Positions 3,615-62,480 of a DNA stretch of 64,000 bases are shown in pieces. Positions within the stretch are counted from its first letter, which is position 1; each line of letters opens with the position of its first letter. Position numbers and translations under genes: made by a program. Source of the DNA: Girardia tigrina (taxonomy: Eukaryota). The notes beneath the pieces are model-generated. The model did no database searches and had not been told where the DNA came from. It saw only the letters and a list, made by a program, of their open reading frames with translations. The DNA lies in contig MQRK01231351.1 in NCBI GenBank assembly GCA_001938485.1, positions 16,394-80,393 of the forward strand. Reading direction: 5' to 3'.

Positions 3615-4097
3615 AACAATGCCACAAACGTAATTTATCAATGTTTAACAAAATTGGAAATAAACGAATTAAGAAAATTTGAAATCTTTGACTCAGTATC
3701 ATTGCCAAATAACGTTTCCTCATTTTCACATGAATTTTCAATCATCCTACCAAGATCAAAATTGTCTGCAATTTTATCCAACAATTTTTCAAATATTACT
3801 GAAGCTTTGATTTCAAGTGACGATGAGCGCGAAGAAACAGATTTCAAGCAAAATAAAATAGATAAAACTTATAAAGTCAAAGGATTTCTTTCCAAAAATG
3901 AAGTTTCACCATCAGTTCGATTAGCTTCATTCGAAAGTCTTTCAGACAATGAAACCTACATGGACGACGATTACGGACAACAATTTTTATTATCACAAAA
4001 TTATTTAGATAATTCATATGAACAATTATTTGCAAATTTAGATGAATTTAATTTACCGAAAAGTTATTCAAAAGATGTATTTAATGATATAAAATAA
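3615..4097 (+). CDS. Putative terminal coding exon of an unidentified host gene (acidic, Ser-rich)
   Basis: Acceptor tttag at 3614; open frame NNATNVIYQCLTKLEINELRKF...FNDIK* of ~160 codons in very AT-rich DNA; AATAAA motifs downstream; no recognised domain. Confidence 0.5.
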   Translation, partial: NNATNVIYQCLTKLEINELRKFEIFDSVSLPNNVSSFSHEFSIILPRSKLSAILSNNFSNITEALISSDDEREETDFKQNKIDKTYKVKGFLSKNEVSPSVRLASFESLSDNETYMDDDYGQQFLLSQNYLDNSYEQLFANLDEFNLPKSYSKDVFNDIK

Positions 4098-26530: not shown

Positions 26531-27125
26531 TTGAGATATAAATATGTTTAATTATATAATTATTTCAAAGATAAAGATGAATTGTGGAAACAAAACGTTA
26601 ATATTTATTTGATAGATTAACTATGTAAATTTCAAATAATCAATTTAAATTTTATGTCAAGATATTTTTAACTTCATTTATTGAAAAATCCTCATTATTT
26701 ACCGGTACACTTTATATATGTGGTAAAAGAATATATTTTGACCAAATAAATAATTTTAACTACCAACAAATGTTTTTAAATAATTAAATGGAACAATGCA
26801 GAGAAGGTTTTAACGGGTCACGAAAATTTCACAAGTAGATCAAATGGGTAAATAAAATAATTTTATAAATTGTAAAGAAGGTTTTGAGAATTGTCGAATA
26901 ATTAGATACGATTACTTTAGGAGAATGATTTTCGTATATTTTATGCTGAGTTAATGGGTAACTTCATCTGTAATGTCTTTTGGATTCGTAAAATCGAAGA
27001 GGCACAAATTAAGGAAGAACTTGGATTTCATTTTGATGATTAATTCTACTGAAGAAATTAATTTGAAAATTTATCAAGTATTTTTTGATATAACCAAAGT
27101 CATCCATTTAAAAATATATTTTAAA

Positions 27126-27167
27126 ACAATATATTTCGACGGATCTACCGTCATCTTCAGGTCACTA
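27126..27167 (-). ncRNA. Minimal type I hammerhead ribozyme in the PLE pLTR
   Basis: GAC-CTGAAGA-T-GACGG TAGAT CCGTC-GAAA-TATATT-GTT. Confidence 0.8.
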
Positions 27168-28475
27168 ATTAATAATCAATTCACCTGTATATAAATACAA
27201 AAATGATGATTGTGTAATCGATTGCATGAAATCATGCTAATCAAAAATTCTCAATAAGCTGGTTGAGACTGCCGATTGAACATTGATTTTAGGGCAACGT
27301 GACCTAATTGACAATGCTTCACACGACAGTCTCTCCCAATAACTGTCAAAAGGCTTACACAGAATTTTGAAATTATCAAAATTTACATTTTTTCCTATGT
27401 TCTGCAATATTACTCTTACTCTCTTTTCGACCATGTTCTTGAATTCGTTTACAGAGATGACGGGCAGTCTCTCCAATGTTGCATCGCACCCATTACATTT
27501 ATATTCATAAACAATATCAGAACAAAGTGTTAAAGGTGTAATAGATTTATTACTGAACATATTTTGAATTTTATGAGATCGTGATATAATTTTTNNNNNN
27601 NNNNNNNNNNNNNNNNNNNNNNNNNNNNNNNNNNNNNNNNNNNNAGATTTATTACTGAACATATTTTGAATTTTATGAGATCGTGATATAATTTTTAAAT
27701 TTAATTCATTGTTAGTTGCTTTTAACAATGTATTTTTAAAGTTTTTAAATCCTTCAGAATAAGTTATAATTAAACAATATTTAGGCATATTATTCATATC
27801 TAATGATCCTTCGATTTCTTTCTTAGATCCATCAGGAGAAGCCAAACTCTGATTTTTCGAAAAATCTTTCAAAAGTATTTATCTACNNNNNNNNNNNNNN
27901 NNNNNNNNNNNNNNNNNNNNNNNNNNNNNNNNNNNNTTATCTACTGTTTCCTTTATTAATTTTTCTAGAAAGGATTTAGAATAACCATTCTTATTTAACA
28001 ACGAACTTAGTTTATTAACACTTTCTACAGATTTAACAAAAGTGGATGACAACGATCAGGAGCGATAAATTAAACCTTTAATCATGTTTCTTTTATACTT
28101 AAGTTCACAAAAACTATCTGGTGAAGTATATAAACCTGTATCAGTTTGCTTCCTATAAATTCCAGTCTCGTAACNAAGAGATTTTCTTTCAACCAAAAGA
28201 TCCAGAAAAGGTAAAACTCCATTCTTTTCATTTTCAACTGTAAAAGTAACATTTGAATGTAACGAATTCATAAAATTTAAAAATGGAAGTACATCAGCCT
28301 GATTTTTAAATTTTTTTTAGGAATATATCATCAACATATCGTTTATATACTAAAGGTTGATTTCCATCAAACAGTCTCAACCAGCTTATTGAGAATTTTT
28401 GATTAGCATGATTTCATGCAACCGATTACATAATCACCATTTTTGTATTTATAAACAGGTGAATTGAATATTAAT

Positions 28476-28520
28476 TAGTGACCTGAAGATGACGGTAGAT
28501 CCGTCGAAATATATTGTCTT
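28476..28520 (+). ncRNA. Minimal type I hammerhead ribozyme in the inverted pLTR
   Basis: GAC-CTGAAGA-T-GACGG TAGAT CCGTC-GAAA-TATATT-GTC; palindromic stem III AATATATT. Confidence 0.85.
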
Positions 28521-29141
28521 AAAATATATTTTTAAATGGATGACTTTGGTTATTAAAAGAAGATTTTCATCCGGACTTCATTTTTTGATATCTTCATTAT
28601 TTGAAATAAGAAATCTGGAAACAGAGATTCAGGAAAAGGATTTTTGTTTTCTATTTTGTGTTTCTGAGAATCCTGAAAATCGCCACAAAATACGAAAGAA
28701 AATTATCGAAATAACACAATAATAATATCATAATAATAATTTTATTAATAATAAAAAGTATTGTGAGAAGAAATTCACTTGGCGGTTTTTAAAGGTTTAG
28801 CAGCAACGAATGTCATTCTTCCAGTGTTGATCATTGGTCTTTTGTAAACAGTGTTTTATTCATAACTATATTTATCATTTAATAAAAAGGCAGTTCTAAT
28901 TCTTCCGAAATACATTAGATTTTCTCTATTTTGGACAAAAGTTCTTAATTTTCCAAGAGAACATATAATGCATTATTGTTTGGAATAATTAAATGGACTA
29001 AGCTTCCCTTCATGTTATTTTTTTTGACATGAAATATCAAACAAATTATATAAAACCAGTACTTATTCTAATAATTTGATTACCTTTTTAAAATTAAATG
29101 AAAAAAAAATAAGTATGTATTACTTATGATTGTTTTATGGT

Positions 29142-37250: not shown

Positions 37251-37520
37251 TCAAAACATTTTATTTATAAAAATTACTGGAGCGGAATACGGTGTAAAAG
37301 GTGACGGCATATAATTTAAAACAGATTCAAAACAGTCTCCATTTTCTTTTATTTGATGCGGTCTCCATATGAACTCTGATAAATGAGATTCTGAGTGATG
37401 TCTCGTAGTCCCCCTATGTATCTTATTCCTCCATTTGAAACTGCCCCACATTCTCTCCATTCATTGTCTATGAACTCCTGTATCAGGATTGGCGTATTCG
37501 CAGAATGTTTACTATAGTGG
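37251..37520 (-). mobile_element. Merlin (IS1016/IS1595-like) transposase C-terminal remnant
   Basis: NPDTGVH..MERMWGSFKWRNKIHRGTTRHHSESHLSEFIWR. Confidence 0.75.
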
Positions 37521-38329
37521 TGTTAAACACTTACTGCATGATTTTTTTTATTTTAATAAAAAATATATAATATAGGGAAATAGAAATAAAGAGATAGGTA
37601 TTTTTTATTTTAAAAAAAATGATTTTTTCTTGTAGAATATCCAAACAAACAGTTTAATGAAGGGTTTAATGACATTAATTAATAAAATACAAATACATCT
37701 GTAATGAAAATTTGCTTTTAATGTTATGCTTCATTTAATTTTACCAAATAAAGAAAGGTGTATAAGTATTTGGTTCTCAAACAATAATATCATCTTTAAG
37801 AACTTGATAGATTGAACTTGTTTTAATTGACTCATCAAATCCTTTTTATATATAAATAATAATAATATTAATTATGAAATGCAAAAAAAAAGAAAAAAAA
37901 AGATCAAATATTATTTACCAATTACCATTTATAATTCGACAAATTTTCGTATTTTTAGTGGAAATCTAAAACCTCTTGAAATGAACCAACGATTTTTGAT
38001 AATATTAATTTATTAAGTCGTATTGATTAGTTCAAATAACAAAAAGTATTCCCCAAAAAAATAAAAAAAAACAGTCAAATTTTGGAAAATCCGGTTCCAA
38101 TTGTTCTGGGACATTTTCACGTTGTTTTAGATCAATTAACGTCAATCATAACAAAATTTAAAAAAAACGTTTTTTAATTATTATTAAATATATTTTATTA
38201 ATTTTTGAATCTGGGTTTTGTTTCTTGTATTCATTTTATAAGTGGTTATATAACATATGATTAAAGATAATTAGTTGTAATAATAATAATAATAATAAAT
38301 TATATCGTGATGTCCAAATAAAATCATCG

Positions 38330-38830
38330 TAACGTTTAAAACTCTCGACCTGCCTTTCAGTGGTTGCATCAAATAACTCGTCACACTCACCACACCATCA
38401 GGCATGAAGAACAGATGCCAATAAACTATTGGCGCTAGCTAGGTGTGTTGCTGTCCTCACTGTACTGTATCGGGTTAATACATAATTTTCTCTATTAATT
38501 CATGGCATTAGTGTGCTGAAACAGCTGGTGCTTAGGGTGACATTAATATAGATGTCAGTCTGTGTGACGTGTATTCCGATCATCCAACCATTGATTGGAA
38601 TACATGCAAACAAACACACACAGCTTCTGTATACACTAACGGTGTTATTAATAGCAATTATATCTGTTTTTGCTTGAACACTTGTTTGTATTTCTGGTTG
38701 TTTGTGTGCCCGGGCTCCAAGTGATCAACTACAGCAAACAGACCCACATCTCTCCCGACATTACTTTCTGATTAATGGTACGGCTGCACCAAATTACTGC
38801 TACTGTCAAATTATAATAGCATTTCGTTAT
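38330..38830 (+). ncRNA. Candidate ~500-nt multibranched structured RNA
   Basis: TGTATTCCGATCA(38570)/TGATTGGAATACA(38592), CTATTAAT/ATTAATAG, GCCAATA/TATTGGC, CACACC/GGTGTG, CACTTG/CAAGTG, TCTGTTT/AAACAGA, CAGTGGTT/AATTACTG. Confidence 0.6.
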
Positions 38831-39023
38831 GTAGTACCATATCAACTAAAATATTGAGTCAACATTTTTTTTTATTATTTGATATATTGATAATATTGAA
38901 TGAGGCGGGCCAATACTTGAACCTTGATTCCTATTCTTTGTTTTCGATGCATGATTAAATATTTATAATACTCAACAACAACAACAAAAAAAATTGACAA
39001 CAAAAAACCAACTTAATATTTTA

Positions 39024-39375
39024 GGAGTTGTGTGTTTGTAACTATTTTATGCCAATGACGTTATTTTTATTGTTTTTGTTATATGGCTGATGCTTAGTCA
39101 ACGTCTGTCACTGCCACTGGAAAGCAGCTGCTTCGACGAATAATATACTTACGTGCATTATGGTATCGTTGATTATATCACTATTATGTACCAGACTGGC
39201 ATATACTTCTGGTTTGACTGGCAGTAGTTTTCAGTTCGCTCTCTATTATTAATGAATTTATATTCTGGGTGAGACTAATGATCATTTTCTGGAAAAAAGT
39301 GTTGACTATTTATATTGGAAATATAATAGAAGTCATGGGAACGTTATTTGCATAGAATTTATATGAGAATACTCG
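39024..39375 (+). ncRNA. Candidate ~350-nt multibranched structured RNA with a long basal stem
   Basis: TATGCCAATGACGTT(39048)/AACGTTATTTGCATA(39340); ACTGCCA/TGGCAGT, TTAGTC/GACTAA, TGGTA/TACCA. Confidence 0.55.
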
Positions 39376-40073
39376 TAAGCCATTAATAAATGCTGTAGTT
39401 TGATTAGAATTATTAATTAAATCATCTGCTATAATATATTATATAGAGGTATTCGTTTTTTTACGGTTGAAAAATAACATATCCCATCTTGTATGACGTT
39501 CTTTTGATTTTCCTTTTTCTGTTGTTGAAAACTTATCGAATTGAATAATTTTCCCATTTAATTTTCGCCCAATAATATTTCTCCAATTCGAGTTTTACCA
39601 ATGAGTTGTAATATTATGATAATAATGGGGAGTTGGGGGAGGAGGATGGGGGCGGGCGGAGAGATACTACAATTTGTTTGGGCTCTTGAAACTAGTTCTA
39701 GAATTATTGTTTAATAAGTTTTCAGGATTATAATTTTATTAATTAAAATAAATTTTTAAAAAAAATCGTAATTTTTATTTTGTTAATTATTGTTTTCGGT
39801 AATTTAAAATTGTCAATGTCAGATCCAATTGAAACGGAAAAGAATGATGGTTATGTAACGATTGATATGATTGTGTCATGTAATTTTCAAAAGTTTAACA
39901 CTATTATGACTACATATGTTAAGAATAAATTCTTGGATACTTTTGTAGAAATTGTAAGAAGATTCTTCAATACATGTGGCATAAACAAGTTTTGACTACG
40001 ATTCGCGAACGTGACATCATTTTGAAGTTATAGTAATAAATTTAATAATAACAAGTACTTTTCATGACGTATA

Positions 40074-40074
<1 letters not shown>

Positions 40075-40124
<50 letters not shown>

Positions 40125-40212: not shown

Positions 40213-41350
40213 ACGCTTTCTTAGCATTAGTAGCACCTCCATCCAAAACTCCTTTTAGACGCCCATTTTCTAAGAATATATTTTTTTGGTTTTTTATACT
40301 TTATTTAATTCAATCGCAAGTTTATATTCGTAAGAAATAAATATTAAAAAATTATTTATTCATTTCCCATTGAATAATATAATTTAGACTATGTTATTCT
40401 ATTACAAAACTGACACTGAATAAAATGCTTAAAACAGAAAAAAGCATATCATTTTAGATATAATCTCTTCGAGCTTTTAAACCTTAAACATATAAAAAAT
40501 TAAACCAACCATAAATTCAGTAATACAGCACAAATTTTGTCTGGTACTCGAAAGTACCTGTGGTCAACTAAGGGTTAAACTTGAAAATTCATCGATTATG
40601 TTTTGTATTTCTAATTTGTCGAAAATATCACTCTCAATTGATACCATTGATAAACCAACTAATCATTCTTGGGAAATGGTTGACCTTAATAATTGCTAAT
40701 TAGTATAACCTTCTAAAAAGATCTTTCTCCACTTTACATTGACATTTGTAAAGTTAAGAATAATTTAATAGCAATTACTAAATTGGGAAAATGAATTCCA
40801 ATAGATTTATATCCCAAGATGTTGAATCTGTTGGTTGCTATTTCTATTTAATTAAATAACTTTCTTGAATAAATATATTTTTTCTGTCAGCGGAAAGAAA
40901 ATTGTTTTTTTTAATAAATTATTGTTCACTTTGTAAATTTCTTTTATTTTATTTATAAATTCAAAATATTTTAGAATACTTTGTGAAAAGGTTTATATAT
41001 ATATAACATTAAAAGGAATTACCTTATTGGTAAATCCATAATCATTGCTAATACGACACTACAAAGCATTTATAAACATACAAAATGGACCAAGTAAAGC
41101 AGCCTCAATATTACATATCTTTAAATAAAATTAACTAAAATATTAACCAATAAGATTGAAGTTTAATGTTACTTTAAATATTTTTGTCACCATTTAATAG
41201 TTTAAAATTAAATAAATTAATAAAAATACAAATAATAATAAATCAAAAATGAATTACAACTCAAATAAAGTTGCTGAAGATGATTGTAGATTTAAAAAAA
41301 TCCATTTTAAAAATTATCTATTCTAAAAATTTCAGATTATTGTTAAATAG

Positions 41351-41398
<48 letters not shown>

Positions 41399-42142
41399 GA
41401 GTTGTCTGTAATTCAAATTGAATAAAATTATTAATATTTGAACAAATTATTTCTTTTAGATAAAATTCCAAATTATTAATGTGTATTTTATCAAAATCAA
41501 GAATTTTATTGAATAGAAAATATTTCATGGAAATAAAGTTGTAGTATATTTAGTAAATTTTATTTTGGAAAGTTTTTGAAAATATGTATGGTAATTTTGG
41601 TAATTTTATCTATCTGTTCTATCAATGGACGACCCACCTGATGATGATCTGATAAGAATAAAGTTTATCATTAAGCTTTTTCAAAAAAAATCTACAATCT
41701 AATAAGGGTATGAACTCTTAAAATTTTAACAAAAATTCGAAATCATAAAATATCAATTTAATTAATTGACATTAAATATCATTAAAGATAATTAATTTTT
41801 AATAATAAATTAAAATTTTTATTAATCAACAATAAAATAAGTTTATTAATATATTTAAAAAATATTGATAAATAACTATCTATAATTCGTTACAAACTAT
41901 TAATCTTTTTTAAATATATATTTAATTCTTTGTGATATGATTGGTTAACAATGTAACGGTGTATTCATTATGTAAATTAACATCGATTTCCAGAATTTTT
42001 TGTTAGAAATGAAGCAAAACATTTTATATAAATCACACAACACATGTACACAATTATCAATTTATATTTATTTATATTCATTTATATATATTTATATATT
42101 CGATTAAGAAATATATATAAATATATATATATATATAATGTT

Positions 42143-42550
42143 GGTCATAGATGAATATGACATTTATTGATGTGTACGCCAACAGTACACTCAGTGTTTA
42201 CCATATGTGCCTCACTGTGAGCGTGTGTATATGATTGAGAAGGATTGAGTGTTTGTGTGTTTGCATTGGTGCATTTGTGCCATGCTGTATTTATGTTTGT
42301 GTGTGCTTCAATATGACATATTAGTGAACACAATCACCTGATTCCAGTGTCATCAAAATGTCTCCAGCTGGGTCTGGGTGTATTGATTTGTCCAGATGAT
42401 CGTTTTGTTTGCGATGACATTTTACAATGGTTGTATATATTCCGGTTGGAGTGATTGTGTGGTGTGAACAGAGATGTGAGATTGATTGATTGACGTGACG
42501 TGTTGTGATGAGACTGATGATGATGATGATAATTGACATCATTTATGATC
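42143..42550 (+). ncRNA. Candidate ~410-nt G/U-rich multibranched structured RNA
   Basis: GGTCATAGATGA/TCATTTATGATC basal stem; ACACAATCAC(42328)/GTGATTGTGT(42451), AAAATGTC/GACATTTT, GTGTAC/GTACAC, TCTGGGT/GTCCAGA. Confidence 0.6.
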
Positions 42551-43114
42551 ACAATGATTTATATATTTGTTGTCAAATTTATTTTCGTATTTTAATTTAC
42601 TGATTTATTATTTTATTTTCTGTACAAGACAGTTTTGATTTTTTTTGTTTTTTTTAAATATTTGAGGATAAAAGATGTTATAATGTGATTAATGTCTTGT
42701 TGTAGAGGATAGAGAGAATATAGAAGCATCTTTTTTTACTGAATTAGTGGTCTAGAAATTTATTAATTTGGGGGATAATCACAGTGATTGACACTCGTAA
42801 CTGTCATAATAGCAGATACAATTCACTATCACGAAAAAATGGCATTTCTTTATGATTAATTAGAAGAAGTGATTTTGTGCAGTTTTTGATAACATGAATG
42901 CTGTGGAGACCACATGTATTAAAGAACATAGCAGGGTGAACTATTATAATATCGGAATAGGGAATCTTATCTAAGAATGAACCAAAATGGATATCATGGA
43001 ATAATCTAATAATATTAGTTGAAAAAATATATTATGGCAATATGCATTTTGTTCGATTTTAAAATATTTTCTACTAATTATTGTTCTGTATATATATATA
43101 TATATATAATATAA

Positions 43115-48794: not shown

Positions 48795-48847
48795 GTATAT
48801 ATATATCCATGGAATTTAGAAACCTATTTTTGAAGGCATTTTACTCA
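48735..48847 (+). repeat. Left part of a (TA)n-headed interspersed repeat (possibly Helitron/Helentron-like), split by the RLE retroelement
   Basis: TCCATGGAATTTAGAAACCTATTTTTGAAGGC..TTTACTCA matches 63478-63519. Confidence 0.75.
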
Positions 48848-51800
48848 TAAATATAGATAAAGTTTTTTGCCCGTTATGTATGTCAGACTTGCAATGGATT
48901 CTAGTAGTTTTTGATGTTAACAACAAAACAACCATCGTTTATAATGTAATGGAATCCCTAACACTGGAACAAGAACTGGCAATCAACAGCATTATTGCTA
49001 ATCTTCTCTCCTTCTTTCGATTAGGTGGCGAAGGTTGGATCTTGAAACAATCCAATGATTTGCCAACTTCACAAAAATTTGCAGAGAGTGGATACTGGAT
49101 TGCCAACTCTATATGNNNNNNNNNNNNNNNNNNNNNNNNNNNNNNNNNNNNNNNNNNNNNNNNNNNNNNNNNNNNNNNNNNNNNNNNNNGTTCAAAAGAA
49201 AATTAGACGACAAGAAAAAACTATTAAAGAAAAGAATAACAGAGAATTGCGTTACAAAAAAATTTCAGAGATAATAGTGGCCAACTCCACAAAAAGTGCT
49301 GAAGAATTGGACTCTGTCATTACCAACTACATTTTGCAAGCAAGAGTTAAAACGGTCAAAAATCTCAATGCATCAAGAAATATCAGGAATATTAGAAAAA
49401 AAACGGATGTAAATCTACGACATTACTTTAAAATAAAACCGAAAAAGGCCATGGAAATAATTTTAAGTGACACTACTGTTGATGGAGGGCTATGTTTGGA
49501 ATGTCTTACAAATTACGCCAAATCAAAAGCGACTATCCTCCTGAAACAGACTGGAGCAATGCACCAAACATCAAACCTGGCCCAAAATTTCAATTTCAGC
49601 ATGTCACTCCAGAAGAGATTGTCAACATACTCAAGAACACCAAAAATACTACTCCCGGTATATCAAACATTGGCTATGCAGATATTGACTATTGCGACCC
49701 GGGTTGTCGATTTCTGCCCACATTATTTAATAAAATCATTGATACAGGAGTTATTCCACCAAGTTGGAAGAAATTCCTAACGGTAATAATCCCTAAACCA
49801 GGTAAGTCAGGAAATTACAAAGAAGGATCATGGAGACCAATAGCACTGATGGAATGCATTGCCAAGTTGTTCACATCTTGCCTATGTACTCAACTGGAAC
49901 AATGGCTAGTGAAGAACAATTTAATTTCAAAGTTCCAAAAAGGCATCGGACCATCGGTCGGGTGCGCTGAACACAATAACGTCATGAGAATTTTACTGGA
50001 GGAATATGAACATCTTCATATTGCATTCCTCGATCTAACTTATGCATTTGGCAGCATTCCAATTAATCATATATTAGAAGTTCTCAGAAGAAAAGGTCTA
50101 GATTCATTCTCCTGCTCTCTCATTGCAAATCTGTACTCGGATTGTTCATCAACATATGCCTGCAATGATTGTACGACTGAAGACATATCCATCAGGAGGG
50201 GGGTTAGACAAGGATGTCCTCTTTCAATGCTGCTGTTCAGTGTTGGAATTGATCCAATTTTGGCTGCACTACAAGATAATTATGCTTTTGGTATCGACAC
50301 CGAGGCTGGTATGATCACTTGTCTGGCATATGCAGATGATATTGCATTAGTTGCAACCAGCAACTCTTGTTTACAAGCCATGGTTTCATGGTTGAATGGA
50401 CTTCGATGAAGTTTAACCCAGCCAAATGTGGATATTTATCAACTCCTCTTATGAACGAATCAATCCATATTAATAACATACCAATACCTATAGTAACGGA
50501 TGAAGAAGGTTACCGTTATCTCGGAGTAGACTTTACCAGAAAGACAAAATTCACTCCTGAACGTCTATTTCTATCAGCTATTAAGGACTTGAAAAAAATA
50601 ACCAAATCAATACTATTTCCCTGGCAGAAAATAGAAGNNTATAGAATCTTTATACACTCACGATTCACCTTCTATTTTCAAAACTATAATATACCAAACA
50701 GGGAACTTACGGATTATGGCCACCACGAAACCACGAAGTCTATCTTTAAAAGCGGCCTTGACGTGGAAATTCGTCGTTACCTGAAGAAGATTTGTGGAAC
50801 GGTCCCAAATTCATCCAATGATTACACTTATGCTGACAAGAAAAAAGGTGGTTTAGGTTTAGTCTCTACCCGAGATGAATACGCAATACAATCTATAATT
50901 CAAGCGTACAAGAACATGGTGTGCTCAGACGAAACATCGCGTCATCTCACCTTTATCAATTTATTCAACACCCTAGACAGATATCACGGTACTAAAGAAG
51001 AATGGACACTCTCTGATTACCTAAACTGGATCAACACAGGTGACAAAGAGAATGGATTTAAATCTTGGTGGACGAAGATTCGGAATTCAATCAAATACCT
51101 GAAAGGCATTGGGTTACAAATTCAGTTTGTCACTAACGAGCTAGGTATTTGTTTAAAAGTTCACATATCCAATGATTCGCTGATACTAAGTAAACACTCA
51201 ATAGACAGTATAACTTTCCACTTGCACAGAATCTATAACAAAATGAAATTTGACAAATGGAGCAAACAAAGGATGGCTGGAATGTCAGCCATCTCATTGN
51301 CAGAACACAACTTCAGCTCCAAAGTATTATACAATGAGTCACTATCCATCGAGGAATGGCGCTTTTTACACAGCGCAAGGACAAATAGTTTACCAACAAA
51401 TTATAAGCCGAAAAAACCAAAACAACAATCGATGTGTAGGGCATGTGGTCAAGATATAGAAACACAGATCCATGTTCTATGTTGATGTAAACCCAACAGC
51501 ACTCTGATACAGGCGAGACATAATGAAATCGCAGAAATCGTCACAGATGCTTTACTTGCAGAGAAACCAATTTTAAAAATCATCATGAATCGAGAGTGTG
51601 ATTGGTCTGTGTCGGGAAGCCGGATTGATTTACCAGTTTATAACCATGGAACCAAAGAACTCTGGCTTATAGATATAAAAACCCCTTATGACACTGTCAA
51701 AGCACTTAAAGATGCCAAAGATAACAACAAAAAGAAATATAAAAGCCTGCTAACTGAAGCAAAGGCGGCTCATAAAGGATGGACTGTAATATTAGGAGCA

Positions 51801-52141
51801 ATTGTTGTCGGCTGTTTAGGATCTTGGCCCGCCGATAATGACAACCTGCTTAAAAACAAAATTACATCTTTCAGGTACAACTATAAAAAATTTAACCAAA
51901 ATGTGCATAGTGTCGAATATCAAATATTCCAACTCTACATGGCATAAACACAATACCGGTCAATATAACCCACTGATGTCAAATGCGGTGACGACAAATC
52001 TTACCGACACAGTCAAACCATATGCACCAGTAGCCGGTTGATAACAATAGCACAAGTCAAAGATGCTCTATACAGCGACCATAGCTTTGAGCATCTAATG
52101 TATATGGATATCTTTACATATTTCAACTTGAAATTTTGTCA
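48848..52141 (+). mobile_element. 5'-truncated RLE-type non-LTR retrotransposon (NeSL/Utopia-like, R2 group): Ulp1-like, RT, CCHC and restriction-like endonuclease; frameshifted
   Basis: WRPIAL, FLDLTYAFGSIP, GVRQGCPLS, AYADDIAL, FNPAKC; KKGGLGL; CRACGQDIETQIHVLC*C; ARHNEI, RIDL..IDIK..KKKY; N-terminal FCPLC..QWILVVFD..IVYN. Confidence 0.9.
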
Positions 52142-52550
52142 CAATTTTTTCCAAACTTTGAACACTTACTCATTCTCGATGACAATAAATGATTATGTGG
52201 AAATTTGAAAAACCTTTATAGGTCTCAAAATTGGAACAAAACGGTCCTATCGGAGTTCCTGAACAATATTACCATAAAAAGATCTACTTATAAATTATAA
52301 GTAGTTTATATTACACAAAAAAATTAAATTGTAAAATGAATAAAGTCCAGTAATCCGATTTAAAGTCGAACTAGTAAATCGAAAAAATATTTTTTATATC
52401 CATGCTTTATGCGGGCAGAACTCTACTTGACTAACATAATGTGTTTTATTGATTTTTTTTGAAAATATTTTTTTATTAAAACTTTGTTGGCCAAGCAGAT
52501 TTCTGTCTGCATAAATAATGAATATAAGATTTTTTTAGATTTACTAGTTT
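52142..52550 (+). repeat. Right part of the same interspersed repeat, ending in a ~70-bp-arm inverted repeat
   Basis: Matches 63522-63820 and 62755-62990; 52370-52436 inverted at 52485-52550. Confidence 0.75.
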
Positions 52551-56440: not shown

Positions 56441-56527
56441 TTTGAGATCGACCAAGAGACAGCCGCTGCAGCTGTTACAATTCAAGCAACCATTAGAGGA
56501 CACTTAACTAGAAAACATTTAAAAGAG
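56441..56527 (+). CDS. Internal exon encoding an IQ calmodulin-binding motif
   Basis: ttttag|FEIDQETAAAAVTIQATIRGHLTRKHLKE|gttagt; 87 nt, phase 0-0; IQxxxRGxxxRK. Confidence 0.85.
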
Positions 56528-57599
56528 GTTAGTGATATTATTTTAAGAAATTTTTTATTGTAAAGCGTTATAAAATTTATTTATTTCAATCTTCAAGTAA
56601 CAAAATTTTTTGTTTTATGATAAAAGAAACTCAAAGTAACTCTGAGTATCTCTGTCATCTAGAATTTAGGACTCACTTGCTCTTTTATGTCTGTTTCAAC
56701 CACAAAGATTTCATCACGCACTTGTGAAGGAACTGATTCCTCAAATCTCTTCTCATCTTTATTTTTTATATTTTATTAAAATAAAAACTTATTTATTTCT
56801 TTTAATTGAAAGAAGAGAAATTAAATTTCTTTTCGTTTGACTTCATGGGGAAATCTTTCAACATTTTTTTTATTTTAATGTAAAATTACTTTTTTGTTTC
56901 AATTTCTTTTCTTTCATTTGAATTAAACATCTTAATGAAGAAAAATTAAAAATATATCACTTTAATTTCTTGGAGCTTCGTCTATGTCACTTAAGATTTC
57001 CATTAAAATAATTTAGTCATAGTGATTTTTGATAATTTTAATGGTACTCATATATTATTTACTACTCATATTTTCACTTATTAGAATGACCACCCGAACA
57101 TGTTCATTTGGTTTTATGCTTATAGTTTACCAAAATATTTATAGTTCGAAAATTTAAGTTGCAACTTAAACCGTTCTCGGGTTATTTTTTTGAAAATCTT
57201 TGAATGAACTCAACTGAGTCTTAAAAAGAAGGGTGATTAATTGTATTTTTAATTGTATTTGTAAGGCAGTACCAGTGGTCCTAGTGCTTCACAAAATAAC
57301 TTAGATGAAGAATATACAAAATCTTCGAACACGATCACGATGCATGACATGTCAGTGCCCCTCGATAGTACCGCTGAGACGGACTCAGGAGTGATTTCAA
57401 GGGTGGTCCTCGACTTTCGGTTAAGTAATACAAATGATGTGGGGATATTTCGGTGTCCCTTTACAACTTGTTCACAGAAAGACTCGTTCAACACTACTTT
57501 GTGGAATATGATTAGGAAAAATAGACCAAAATAATCAATGATCTTAGTTCATTTTTTATTTTATCTTCTGTTATTTCGTGAGTAATGTAAATATTATAA

Positions 57600-57917
57600 A
57601 GAAGGTGGCTTGGACCATCAGAAAGGAGCTCTGTCCTGACACAGTTTGCATCAAATGAATTAGTTAATTCTACGAATGAGATTTATCAGCAACAATCGGC
57701 GATTTTGGAGCTGCTGTTGACGGAGCAAAATTTTTTGAAGCAAATTCAGTTTATTGTTCAGGTTTACGTACTGAGCTTTGAAATTTTAAAGTTGGAGTTC
57801 TTTCCAAACATTTCTTCTGAAGAAATATTCCTCAACCTAAAATCATATTTCATATGCAATTCCACTTATATTTCCAATGACGATTGTCGCGATTTCAAAG
57901 AATTTTTCAATTATTAG
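57600..57917 (+). pseudogene. Possible RhoGEF DH-domain N-terminal fragment, truncated by a mariner
   Basis: QQSAILELLLTEQNFLKQIQFIVQVY..EEIFLNL resembles DH helix 1 (ELLxTExxY..IFxNL). Confidence 0.4.
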
Positions 57918-59019: not shown

Positions 59020-59700
59020 TGTAAGTAAAATAATTGAGAAAAGGATGATTTTAAATCCGATATAGGAACGAATGAGAGGCATAATTGTGGTTACACATTA
59101 ACTGTTCTTTATTCTGAAGGTCTTAAAAAATTCAAATCTTTTATTATAATATCAATTAAGACTATGAATACTATGAATTTAAAAATCGTATCAAAAACAT
59201 ATAAAATCCAGAATAAGTTCAGTAATAAATCGAAAACTCCTTTGAGTTTATGCTCGGATCTTGCGCATAAATTTGATTGTAATGGGTGCAACGCCACATA
59301 AATTGAAGAGACAGTCATTCATCTCTGTAAACGGGTTCGTGAGCATAGACATTACTAAGTGGTAGTAGTAATATTGCTGAACATAAAAAAACATTGTAAA
59401 TCTTCTGTTAAAATAAATAATTTTAAAGTTTTATGCAACAATTTTTTAAATTATTGGGAAAGATTCTCATGTGAGGCATTAATAATAAAAGTGGTTAATC
59501 CAGCAATTAATTTCCAATCAAGTCACTTATCAACTTTGTTGAAAGTGTTTACGTGAAACAATAATTACATAATTGATTATGTAACCATCATTTTAACATA
59601 TATAAGGTTAGCAGCTTGAATTAGAATCGCCTGATGATAACGGATATTCCGTCGAAATGTATTACAATAATAAAAAAATTATTTTAAAATGGCGTCTTTT
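59020..59700 (+). mobile_element. Penelope-like 3' fragment (GIY-YIG + pLTR) with a hammerhead-like motif at 59626-59668
   Basis: KFDCNGCNAT, RVREH, EALIIKVVNPAINFQ; CTGATGA-T-AACGGA TAT TCCGTC-GAAA. Confidence 0.8.
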
Positions 59701-62079: not shown

Positions 62080-62480
62080 ACATAATAGATTTCTACCGTC
62101 CCAAACTAGTATGTAAGTATACAGTACCAGTCAATGTCAGCGGATTTTTGTCGCATGGAGAAAATCAACAAATCGATTTCCATAACATTACCTGCGACGC
62201 ATCCAACCGGAGCACTAATCATTTATCGGGTTTTCAGGTTTAGTCGGTACTGGAAGATCGTCTCACATGGCACTCACGCCGACGAATTTCCATCAAACTA
62301 CCGACACCTAAACCACTCGCATAGTGAGTTTCACCCGATGATTGTTTAGTAGCGGTCTAAACATGGAATCAACATTTGTTCGGCAAATCTCATGTTGATG
62401 ATTTCAGTTGACACATTTTTACTGGTACAGAAATATACTTATTACTGATTTGGGACCCCAGAAAACAATCTATTTATGTC
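62080..62480 (+). ncRNA. Candidate ~400-nt intronic multibranched structured RNA
   Basis: Basal GTCCCAAA/TTTGGGAC, TAAGTATA/TATACTTA, GTACCAGT/ACTGGTAC; branches ATCGGGT/ACCCGAT, GGTTTAG/CTAAACC, TCGGTA/TACCGA, GTCGCA/TGCGAC, TGTTTAG/CTAAACA, ATCAACAT/ATGTTGAT. Confidence 0.7.

Follow-up and report, generated by a model that had tools for sequence, protein, structure and literature searches.

Setting of the stretch and its predicted domain array

The stretch 38330–40055 lies in a 64-kb segment of Girardia tigrina DNA (the window), which is AT-rich (GC ~27%), contains assembly gaps and is rich in mobile DNA; the content of the window resembles that of an animal genome. The stretch is flanked by (TAA)7 at ~38279 on one side and by (TA)n and a gap at 40076 on the other. 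A non-LTR retroelement at 48820–52000 (+), preceded by (TA)n, encodes an Ulp1 protease and a reverse transcriptase (RT); record P0001 is 96% identical to it across the RT region, and its named relatives from sponge, arachnids, ants and fish have proteins 29–38% identical. An IS1595/Merlin-like fragment is found at 37251–37562 (Pfam E 0.052), and further copies in the window are, judged from their motifs, presumably of mariner type. NeSL and Penelope GIY-YIG are likewise labels that we assume for window elements where no Pfam match is cited. At 40549–40578, GGG followed by TTAA is taken by us to be a piggyBac-type end; a matching second end is absent from the window. Three minimal hammerhead cores (CTGANGA, 5-bp stem II, GAAA) at 28483–28509 (+), 27160–27134 (-) and 59631–59657 (+) adjoin Penelope-like fragments, and the copies at 27090–27271 and 28372–28553 are 97% identical and inverted; minimal type I hammerheads in Penelope-like elements are described in PMC7229834. 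Host coding sequence is represented by an exon with an IQ motif (56447–56527, +, E 8.7e-08) and one with a RhoGEF domain (57600–57914, +, E 0.0047), the latter having no relative at E 0.01 among 151 candidates. The order IQ then RhoGEF (56447–57914, +) is one that we take to be obscurin- or RasGRF-like. Upstream of 38330–40055, no host exon was identified.

The original prediction saw in this stretch five contiguous fold-back domains over ~1.7 kb, possibly one long structured lncRNA. All of its quoted arm motifs (8/8) are present, at 38847/39012, 39536/39584, 39800/40019 and 39816/40012; the 39536/39584 pair, quoted for domain 4, encloses fewer than 60 nt inside that domain and does not bound it. 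The quoted arms are not above chance, arms of this size being less frequent in the stretch than across the window: 13-bp arms (at most one mismatch, within 200 nt) occur at 1.16/kb in the stretch versus 2.50/kb, and perfect 8-bp arms within 60 nt at 2.90/kb versus 6.15/kb. Both arms of domain 2 contain AATATTTTAG, which occurs nine times in the window and likely forms the acceptor before the exon at 3615.

Folding of the domains as drawn (+ strand) gave z-scores of -2.1 for domain 1 (1/25 shuffles as good), -1.3 for domain 2 (4/40), -2.0 for domain 3 (2/40) and -1.2 for domain 5 (5/40), whereas domain 4 folds worse than its shuffles (z +1.6, 39/40 as good). Folding is not significant for four of the five domains, an outcome that the prediction itself had named as its refutation. 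A ScanFold-like scan with 120-nt windows on the + strand yielded a mean z of -0.09 in the stretch versus -0.20 outside, with z <= -3 in 1/27 and 24/979 windows, respectively. The proposed domain limits dissolve in context, where an 18-bp helix (38857–38874/39290–39307, p 0.98) joins domains 2 and 3. The remainder assigned to domains 2–5 (38780–40055, 1.28 kb) displays no folding excess on either strand when folded whole (z -0.05 on the + strand, 5/12 shuffles; +0.25 on the - strand, 6/12).

Within the stretch, one ~310-base segment alone folds better than chance, and a single 1.7-kb lncRNA made of five selected fold-back domains is scarcely credible. In its favour, 38330–39329 reaches z -3.6 (0/20), and two pieces with bounds picked after the fact, 39037–39363 in domain 3 (z -2.5, 0/40) and the hairpin 39904–39984 (z -3.6, 0/40), have some excess, within the range shown elsewhere in the window. 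The excess of 38330–39329 (~19 kcal/mol) is, however, accounted for by the core described below, and the other 1.28 kb does not rise above its shuffles; one long five-domain structured lncRNA is therefore unsupported, and we regard this model as largely refuted computationally.

The absence of TE fragments was borne out: nothing in the stretch matched a TE or a protein, and a six-frame Pfam scan gave no hit (0/6 frames). Searches against other protein collections covered two of the six frames, the other four being covered by Pfam. That the stretch lacks a credible ORF holds in part: an 82-codon open frame at 39747–39995 (+; 59 aa from ATG 39817) had been overlooked, and it has no homologue, with 0 matches to its frame among 1.84 billion proteins. 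This frame could be a first exon; a GTAAGA near 39955 is a possible donor within it. Upstream of ATG 39817, 39569–39661 is promoter-like, with three CCAAT within 35 nt and then the window's only four-run G tract with a GC box; a GC box and CCAAT also occur at 38904–38914. We assume the labels G-quadruplex, GC box and CCAAT box for these motifs.

The longest frame of domain 1, on the minus strand at 38290–38724, contains two TGA stops and a WCGEC motif. It gave 0 matches among 12 candidates of 79–254 aa and no match in Atlas; its PDB matches to interleukin-15 (E 0.012) and disulfide isomerase (E 1.1) were taken as chance. Codon scores in the stretch lie below the window's 90th percentile in a scan with 60-nt steps; on a 90-nt grid, window 38521, within the same minus frame, scores 0.09, between the 90th and 95th percentiles.

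A strand-biased fold at 38440–38750

The structured core at 38440–38750 (+) is formed by an interrupted closing stem (38442–38475/38708–38745) around a multiloop that holds an unpaired 28-nt stretch and four hairpins. With an MFE of -99.3 it reaches z -4.6/-4.7, none of 60 global shuffles being as good, and block shuffles place it at z -5.0 (20-nt blocks) and -5.7 (40-nt blocks), with 0/60 as good in each. Its helices have p 0.87–1.0 when folded in context, and its ensemble diversity is 0.091 per nt versus 0.244 in shuffles (0/60 as low). On the minus strand z is -1.5 (3/60 shuffles as good). When G.U pairs are disallowed z drops to ~-2.5 on both strands; the fold excess therefore depends on + strand wobble pairs, as expected of an RNA rather than a DNA palindrome. 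Under DNA parameters z is -2.7. Among 311-nt windows the core ranks second of 376, behind a palindromic repeat at 52235, on a scan grid that was aligned on the core and so favours it, and with bounds chosen after the fold had been seen. The strongest hairpin, 38556–38615 (+), comprises 15 contiguous bp (2 G.U) and a 9-nt loop, is extendable to ~23 bp and has the size of a pre-miRNA (z -4.2 to -5.9, 0/200 shuffles); the core without it still gives z -2.8 (1/100). One copy of the core is present in the 64-kb window. These properties support a predicted single + strand structured RNA of 310–390 nt. The structured non-coding RNA of the original prediction is thus plausible for the first 310–390 nt, whereas the other 1.28 kb stays at shuffle level.

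The composition of domain 1 also departs from its surroundings: CpG is 0.60 and CpA/TpG 1.50, compared with 0.65 and 1.25 in the retroelement ORF and 1.06 and 1.10 in the window. A GT-rich, CpG- and TpA-poor patch of similar composition follows (TA)n at 42140–42560; a 137-codon frame on its minus strand, containing a single TGA, gave no Pfam match.

Comparison with known RNA classes assigned the stretch to none of them. Rfam returned nothing near a gathering score for the stretch, no tRNA was found, and sequence searches with the core against phage, plasmid and GTDB collections had 0 matches. A prokaryotic, phage or plasmid origin was set aside on this result, bacterial promoters being at chance level (13 versus 14.3 expected). 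Of two hammerhead look-alikes, the one on the minus strand at 38401 is without A9 and stems I and III, and the one at ~39087 is, by eye, without A9 and stem I. A comparison by eye with the motifs of RNase P/MRP, 7SK, SRP, group I intron, tRNA primer-binding site, H/ACA and ITS2 gave no convincing case. A telomerase RNA, with a template of ~1.5 repeats, was rejected because, for seven repeat types, matches reach at most 6 nt (+) or 7 nt (-).

Box C/D motifs and snRNA complements around the core

The core is bracketed by motifs resembling those of a box C/D RNA. A box C-like ATGAAGA (38404–38410, +) matches RUGAUGA at 6/7 positions and lies 36 nt before the core, and a box D CTGA (38768), continuous with the 3' strand of a terminal stem (TTAATGGT; together 38768–38779, +), lies 18 nt past it. 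The 5' strand of this stem, ACCATCAG (38394–38401, +), pairs at 7/8 positions with 38772–38779. Box C and box D thus stand near the 5' and 3' ends, the two positions looked for. The consensus RUGAUGA and a kink-turn bulge of 3 nt are given in PMC5499572; in the candidate the 7/8 stem register requires a 4-nt bulge, and closure of a canonical 3-nt bulge falls to a G.U pair plus a bulged G. Inside the bracket, a CTGA at 38516–38519 (+), a possible D', sits in the loop of hairpin 38504–38532, and a C'-like GTGATCA (38721–38727, +) is base-paired in the closing stem. The two lie in separate helices, and a juxtaposed C'/D' motif is absent.

Under a strict box pattern, no other C/D pair in the window has at least 7/8 stem pairs (92 C-like and 318 D sites, both strands), and shuffled flanks reproduce it in 2/100,000 cases. 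With relaxed boxes and duplex energy as the score, 5/330 pairs are as good, as are 73/100,000 shuffled flanks; both values are to be discounted for the roughly ten motif classes tried before box C/D. Shuffled windows hold a mean of 0.4 such C/D pairs each, so only the co-location with the folded core is informative. Trimmed to 38394–38779, the RNA closes the terminal stem in its unconstrained MFE (z -4.3, 0/60), and forcing the kink costs 3.2 kcal/mol. The outer 5 bp of the stem have p 0.64–0.97 in the trimmed RNA versus <=0.02 with 50–90 nt of flank, because flanking hairpins compete.

Two stretches complementary to spliceosomal snRNAs lie near the 5' end, found by eye against the human sequences printed in 10.1101/2021.08.01.454689, from which those of the host may differ. 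The U2 complement (38407–38418, +) covers nt 36–47 with 12 bp (1 G.U), and its fifth nucleotide from the 3' end faces U2 C40; it shares bases with box C, and the four letters after it are CAAT instead of a D box. The U6 complement (38483–38493, +) lies in the unpaired stretch and covers nt 43–53 with 11 bp (1 G.U). A poor D'-like ATTA follows (to 38497) with no partner C', and the fifth nucleotide upstream faces A47. Both are known methylated residues, U2 Cm40 in PMC7960923 and U6 Am47 there and in PMC5855946. The region of U2 that recognises the branch point adjoins nt 36–47, and nt 43–53 of U6 span the ACAGAGA box. The U2-element pattern, which was made from the hit, has one match in the window and occurs in 0/100 shuffles; the U6-element pattern has two matches versus 0.26 expected, the second inside the retroelement ORF. 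For comparison, four complements of at least 11 bp are found in ~24 kb downstream of three 18S starts; by our own estimate (p 0.005–0.04), two such complements in ~0.6 kb of snRNA exceed expectation.

Neither true CTGA box is preceded by a complement to U1, U2, U4, U5 or U6 (by eye, human snRNAs). For rRNA we used eukaryotic rDNA from GTDB contigs at three loci with 28S partly covered; locus L032 is alignable to L026 only over the first 616 nt. At these loci, no complement above the null precedes the D box or 14 D'-like sites (D guide scores 8.4, 7.2 and 6.8 versus null means of 8.5, 8.2 and 9.0), nor the internal CTGA at 38516. In the GTDB prokaryote collection ~320 stretches (loci L001–L051) carry the eukaryotic 18S 5' motif, apparently as contamination of named assemblies. 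A canonical methylation guide was rejected, no antisense element of at least 10 nt lying directly before D or a good D'. Orphans are known in this family, making up 48 of 275 human canonical C/D RNAs (PMC4914119); the missing element therefore excludes a canonical guide, not the C/D class. As for a Cajal-body signal, a motif resembling the fly-type C/D CAB, CGGGTTAATA (38471–38480, +), agrees at 8/10 positions with cgaGUUAnUg (consensus from PMC4041459). The pattern occurs four times in the window versus 4.87 expected and is weak evidence for that reason; a closer match (9/10) lies on the opposite strand at 38371–38380. No vertebrate-type G.U/U.G wobble stem was found in the candidate RNA, the longest run being 2.

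Taken together, we tentatively read the feature as a ~386-nt orphan, scaRNA-like long box C/D RNA at ~38394–38779 (+), with a probability of roughly 0.38. A kink-turn of box C and box D would hold its ends together and bind Snu13/15.5K, Nop58 and fibrillarin, protecting the RNA while exonucleases shorten a larger Pol II precursor. Pol III transcription seems unlikely in view of internal T4 and T5 runs. The multi-hairpin domain of 310 nt may be an insert for protein binding or localisation, and the unpaired complements to U2 (nt 36–47) and U6 (nt 43–53) would point to spliceosomal snRNA, not rRNA, as partner. This reading predicts that the RNA is transcribed, assembled into an RNP, trimmed and localised, and any target is likewise a prediction. 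As the candidate behaves neither as a canonical guide nor as a U3, we assign it to no family; a mode of action like that of long C/D RNAs would apply if the RNA is real. It is distinctly improbable that the RNP, with no canonical methylation, pairs with U2 and U6 in spliceosome assembly as U3 does on pre-rRNA, or that it is a joint U2-C40/U6-A47 guide with non-canonical D boxes.

The nearest relatives in kind are the long box C/D scaRNAs (human U90, mgU2-47, mgU2-19/30 and mgU2-25/61; Drosophila mgU2-41; PMC4041459, PMC3884663). Like them, the candidate is unusually long, has its boxes at the two termini, folds a large GU-rich insert between them and is complementary to the U2 C40 region. GT/TG dinucleotides amount to 19.9 per 100 nt in the candidate versus 9.8 in the window. 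Unlike these scaRNAs, it is without a consecutive G.U/U.G wobble stem, its insert is a four-hairpin multiloop rather than one apical hairpin, and its antisense elements do not lie before true D/D' boxes. mgU6-47/SNORD7, which guides U6 Am47 and is nucleolar in Drosophila, resembles the candidate in its 11-bp complement and in a fifth nucleotide upstream of a D-like 4-mer that faces A47 (PMC5855946, PMC7960923 and PMC3884663). In the candidate, however, the D-like 4-mer reads ATTA, a partner C' is missing, and Rfam gave no SNORD7-type match. Known mgU6-47 RNAs are ~100 nt long. Covariance models overlook long C/D RNAs whose structured inserts are large, and such RNAs are poorly charted beyond model animals; in a flatworm, PMC2770079 reports no unambiguous snoRNA homologue except U3. 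If validated, the candidate would be a scaRNA-like RNA specific to its lineage, with four hairpins in its insert and two candidate snRNA targets; should it truly pair with both U2 and U6, it would be a spliceosome chaperone of an unexpected kind, whereas a multicopy element would make it an ordinary mobile-element remnant.

Alternative explanations for the folded core

Such a remnant is a possible, if rather unlikely, explanation: the core would be a structured cis-element (UTR, packaging or IRES-like) of a retroelement, a non-autonomous element or an endogenised RNA virus whose coding part is absent, and would have served the RNA of that element in cis. Mobile DNA abounds in the window, and the other top-folding 311-nt windows lie mostly on repeats, Penelope-like ends or (TA)n tracts; the stretch itself sits between (TAA)7 and (TA)n plus a gap, and domain 1 is CpG-poor and CpA/TpG-rich like the retroelement ORF and unlike the window. 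The single copy in 64 kb speaks against this origin, as do the lack of Pfam matches in six frames, of protein matches in the frames searched and of matches in phages or plasmids. Terminal inverted or direct repeats are limited to A/T-only matches, and neither terminal repeats, target-site duplication, coding remnant nor tRNA head, sought as signs of MITE, SINE, LTR or non-LTR elements, was found. The C/D bracket would be left unexplained. That a GC-richer, TG/CA-rich patch simply folds well by chance and without function is unlikely. Folds with z <= -4 are reached by 17 of 752 strand-windows of 311 nt, and the post hoc bounds and core-aligned grid weigh on the same side; against chance stand 0/60 shuffles under three schemes, the low ensemble diversity, the strand asymmetry, the z of -2.8 retained without the best hairpin and a box bracket at ~7e-4.

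A further reading is a highly diverged, expanded U3 snoRNA at ~38344–38779, acting as a chaperone of pre-rRNA cleavage. The candidate resembles U3 (PMC5832005, PMC2784804, PMC5499572) in a C'-like/D closure with a putative terminal stem, in an upstream GAC and in that U3 can accommodate large structured inserts (PMC5832005). GAC and CTTTCAG precede the C'-like box in the candidate, and the outer stem ACCA/TGGT resembles that of vertebrate and Euglena U3 in a published alignment (PMC2784804). The look-alike at 38345–38372 (+; GAC, CTTTCAG, GCATCA) nevertheless does not make a U3 5' domain: GAC is at 38347, but by eye, against PMC5832005 and PMC2784804, A' agrees with TACTY at 3/5 positions and A is displaced by ~5 nt, and the distance from GAC to C' is ~57 nt versus 70–80 nt counted by eye in the alignment (PMC2784804). 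Nor does any AGYGA of a box B stand before a box C, the sole AGTGA (38720) having no box C between itself and D. The duplex with the 18S 5' end (-11.7 kcal/mol) does not exceed shuffles, 345/1000 of which are as good, as are 9% of 17,620 window 28-mers, and no U3 model matched in Rfam. We consider a U3 identity very improbable. Only slightly less so is the view that hairpin 38556–38615 gives rise to a lineage-specific miRNA or to endo-siRNAs, the surrounding sequence being its primary transcript. With ~60 nt, ~23 bp, a 9-nt loop, an MFEI of ~-0.9 to -1.0 and 0/200 shuffles as good, it has the appropriate size and is the most stable of the eight window stems with at least 13 contiguous pairs. 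Its stem is nonetheless too short for Drosha and located in a multiloop, and the remaining fold would be unexplained. Drosha needs a stem of roughly 35 bp. The only Rfam miRNA matches score 20 and 12 bits versus cut-offs of 80 and 90, and no paper was found that mentions miRNA and contains 11 nt taken from the 3' arm.

Two further hairpin-forming regions were observed. The 81-nt hairpin at 39904–39984 (+) has ~26 bp (z -2.6 to -3.6) with ACA directly after it and looks, by eye only, miRNA-like or H/ACA-like. At 62221–62340 (+), a sequence with no other copy in the window forms a 120-nt fold with z -5.7 (0/200 shuffles), and with z -9.7 in the 120-nt scan.
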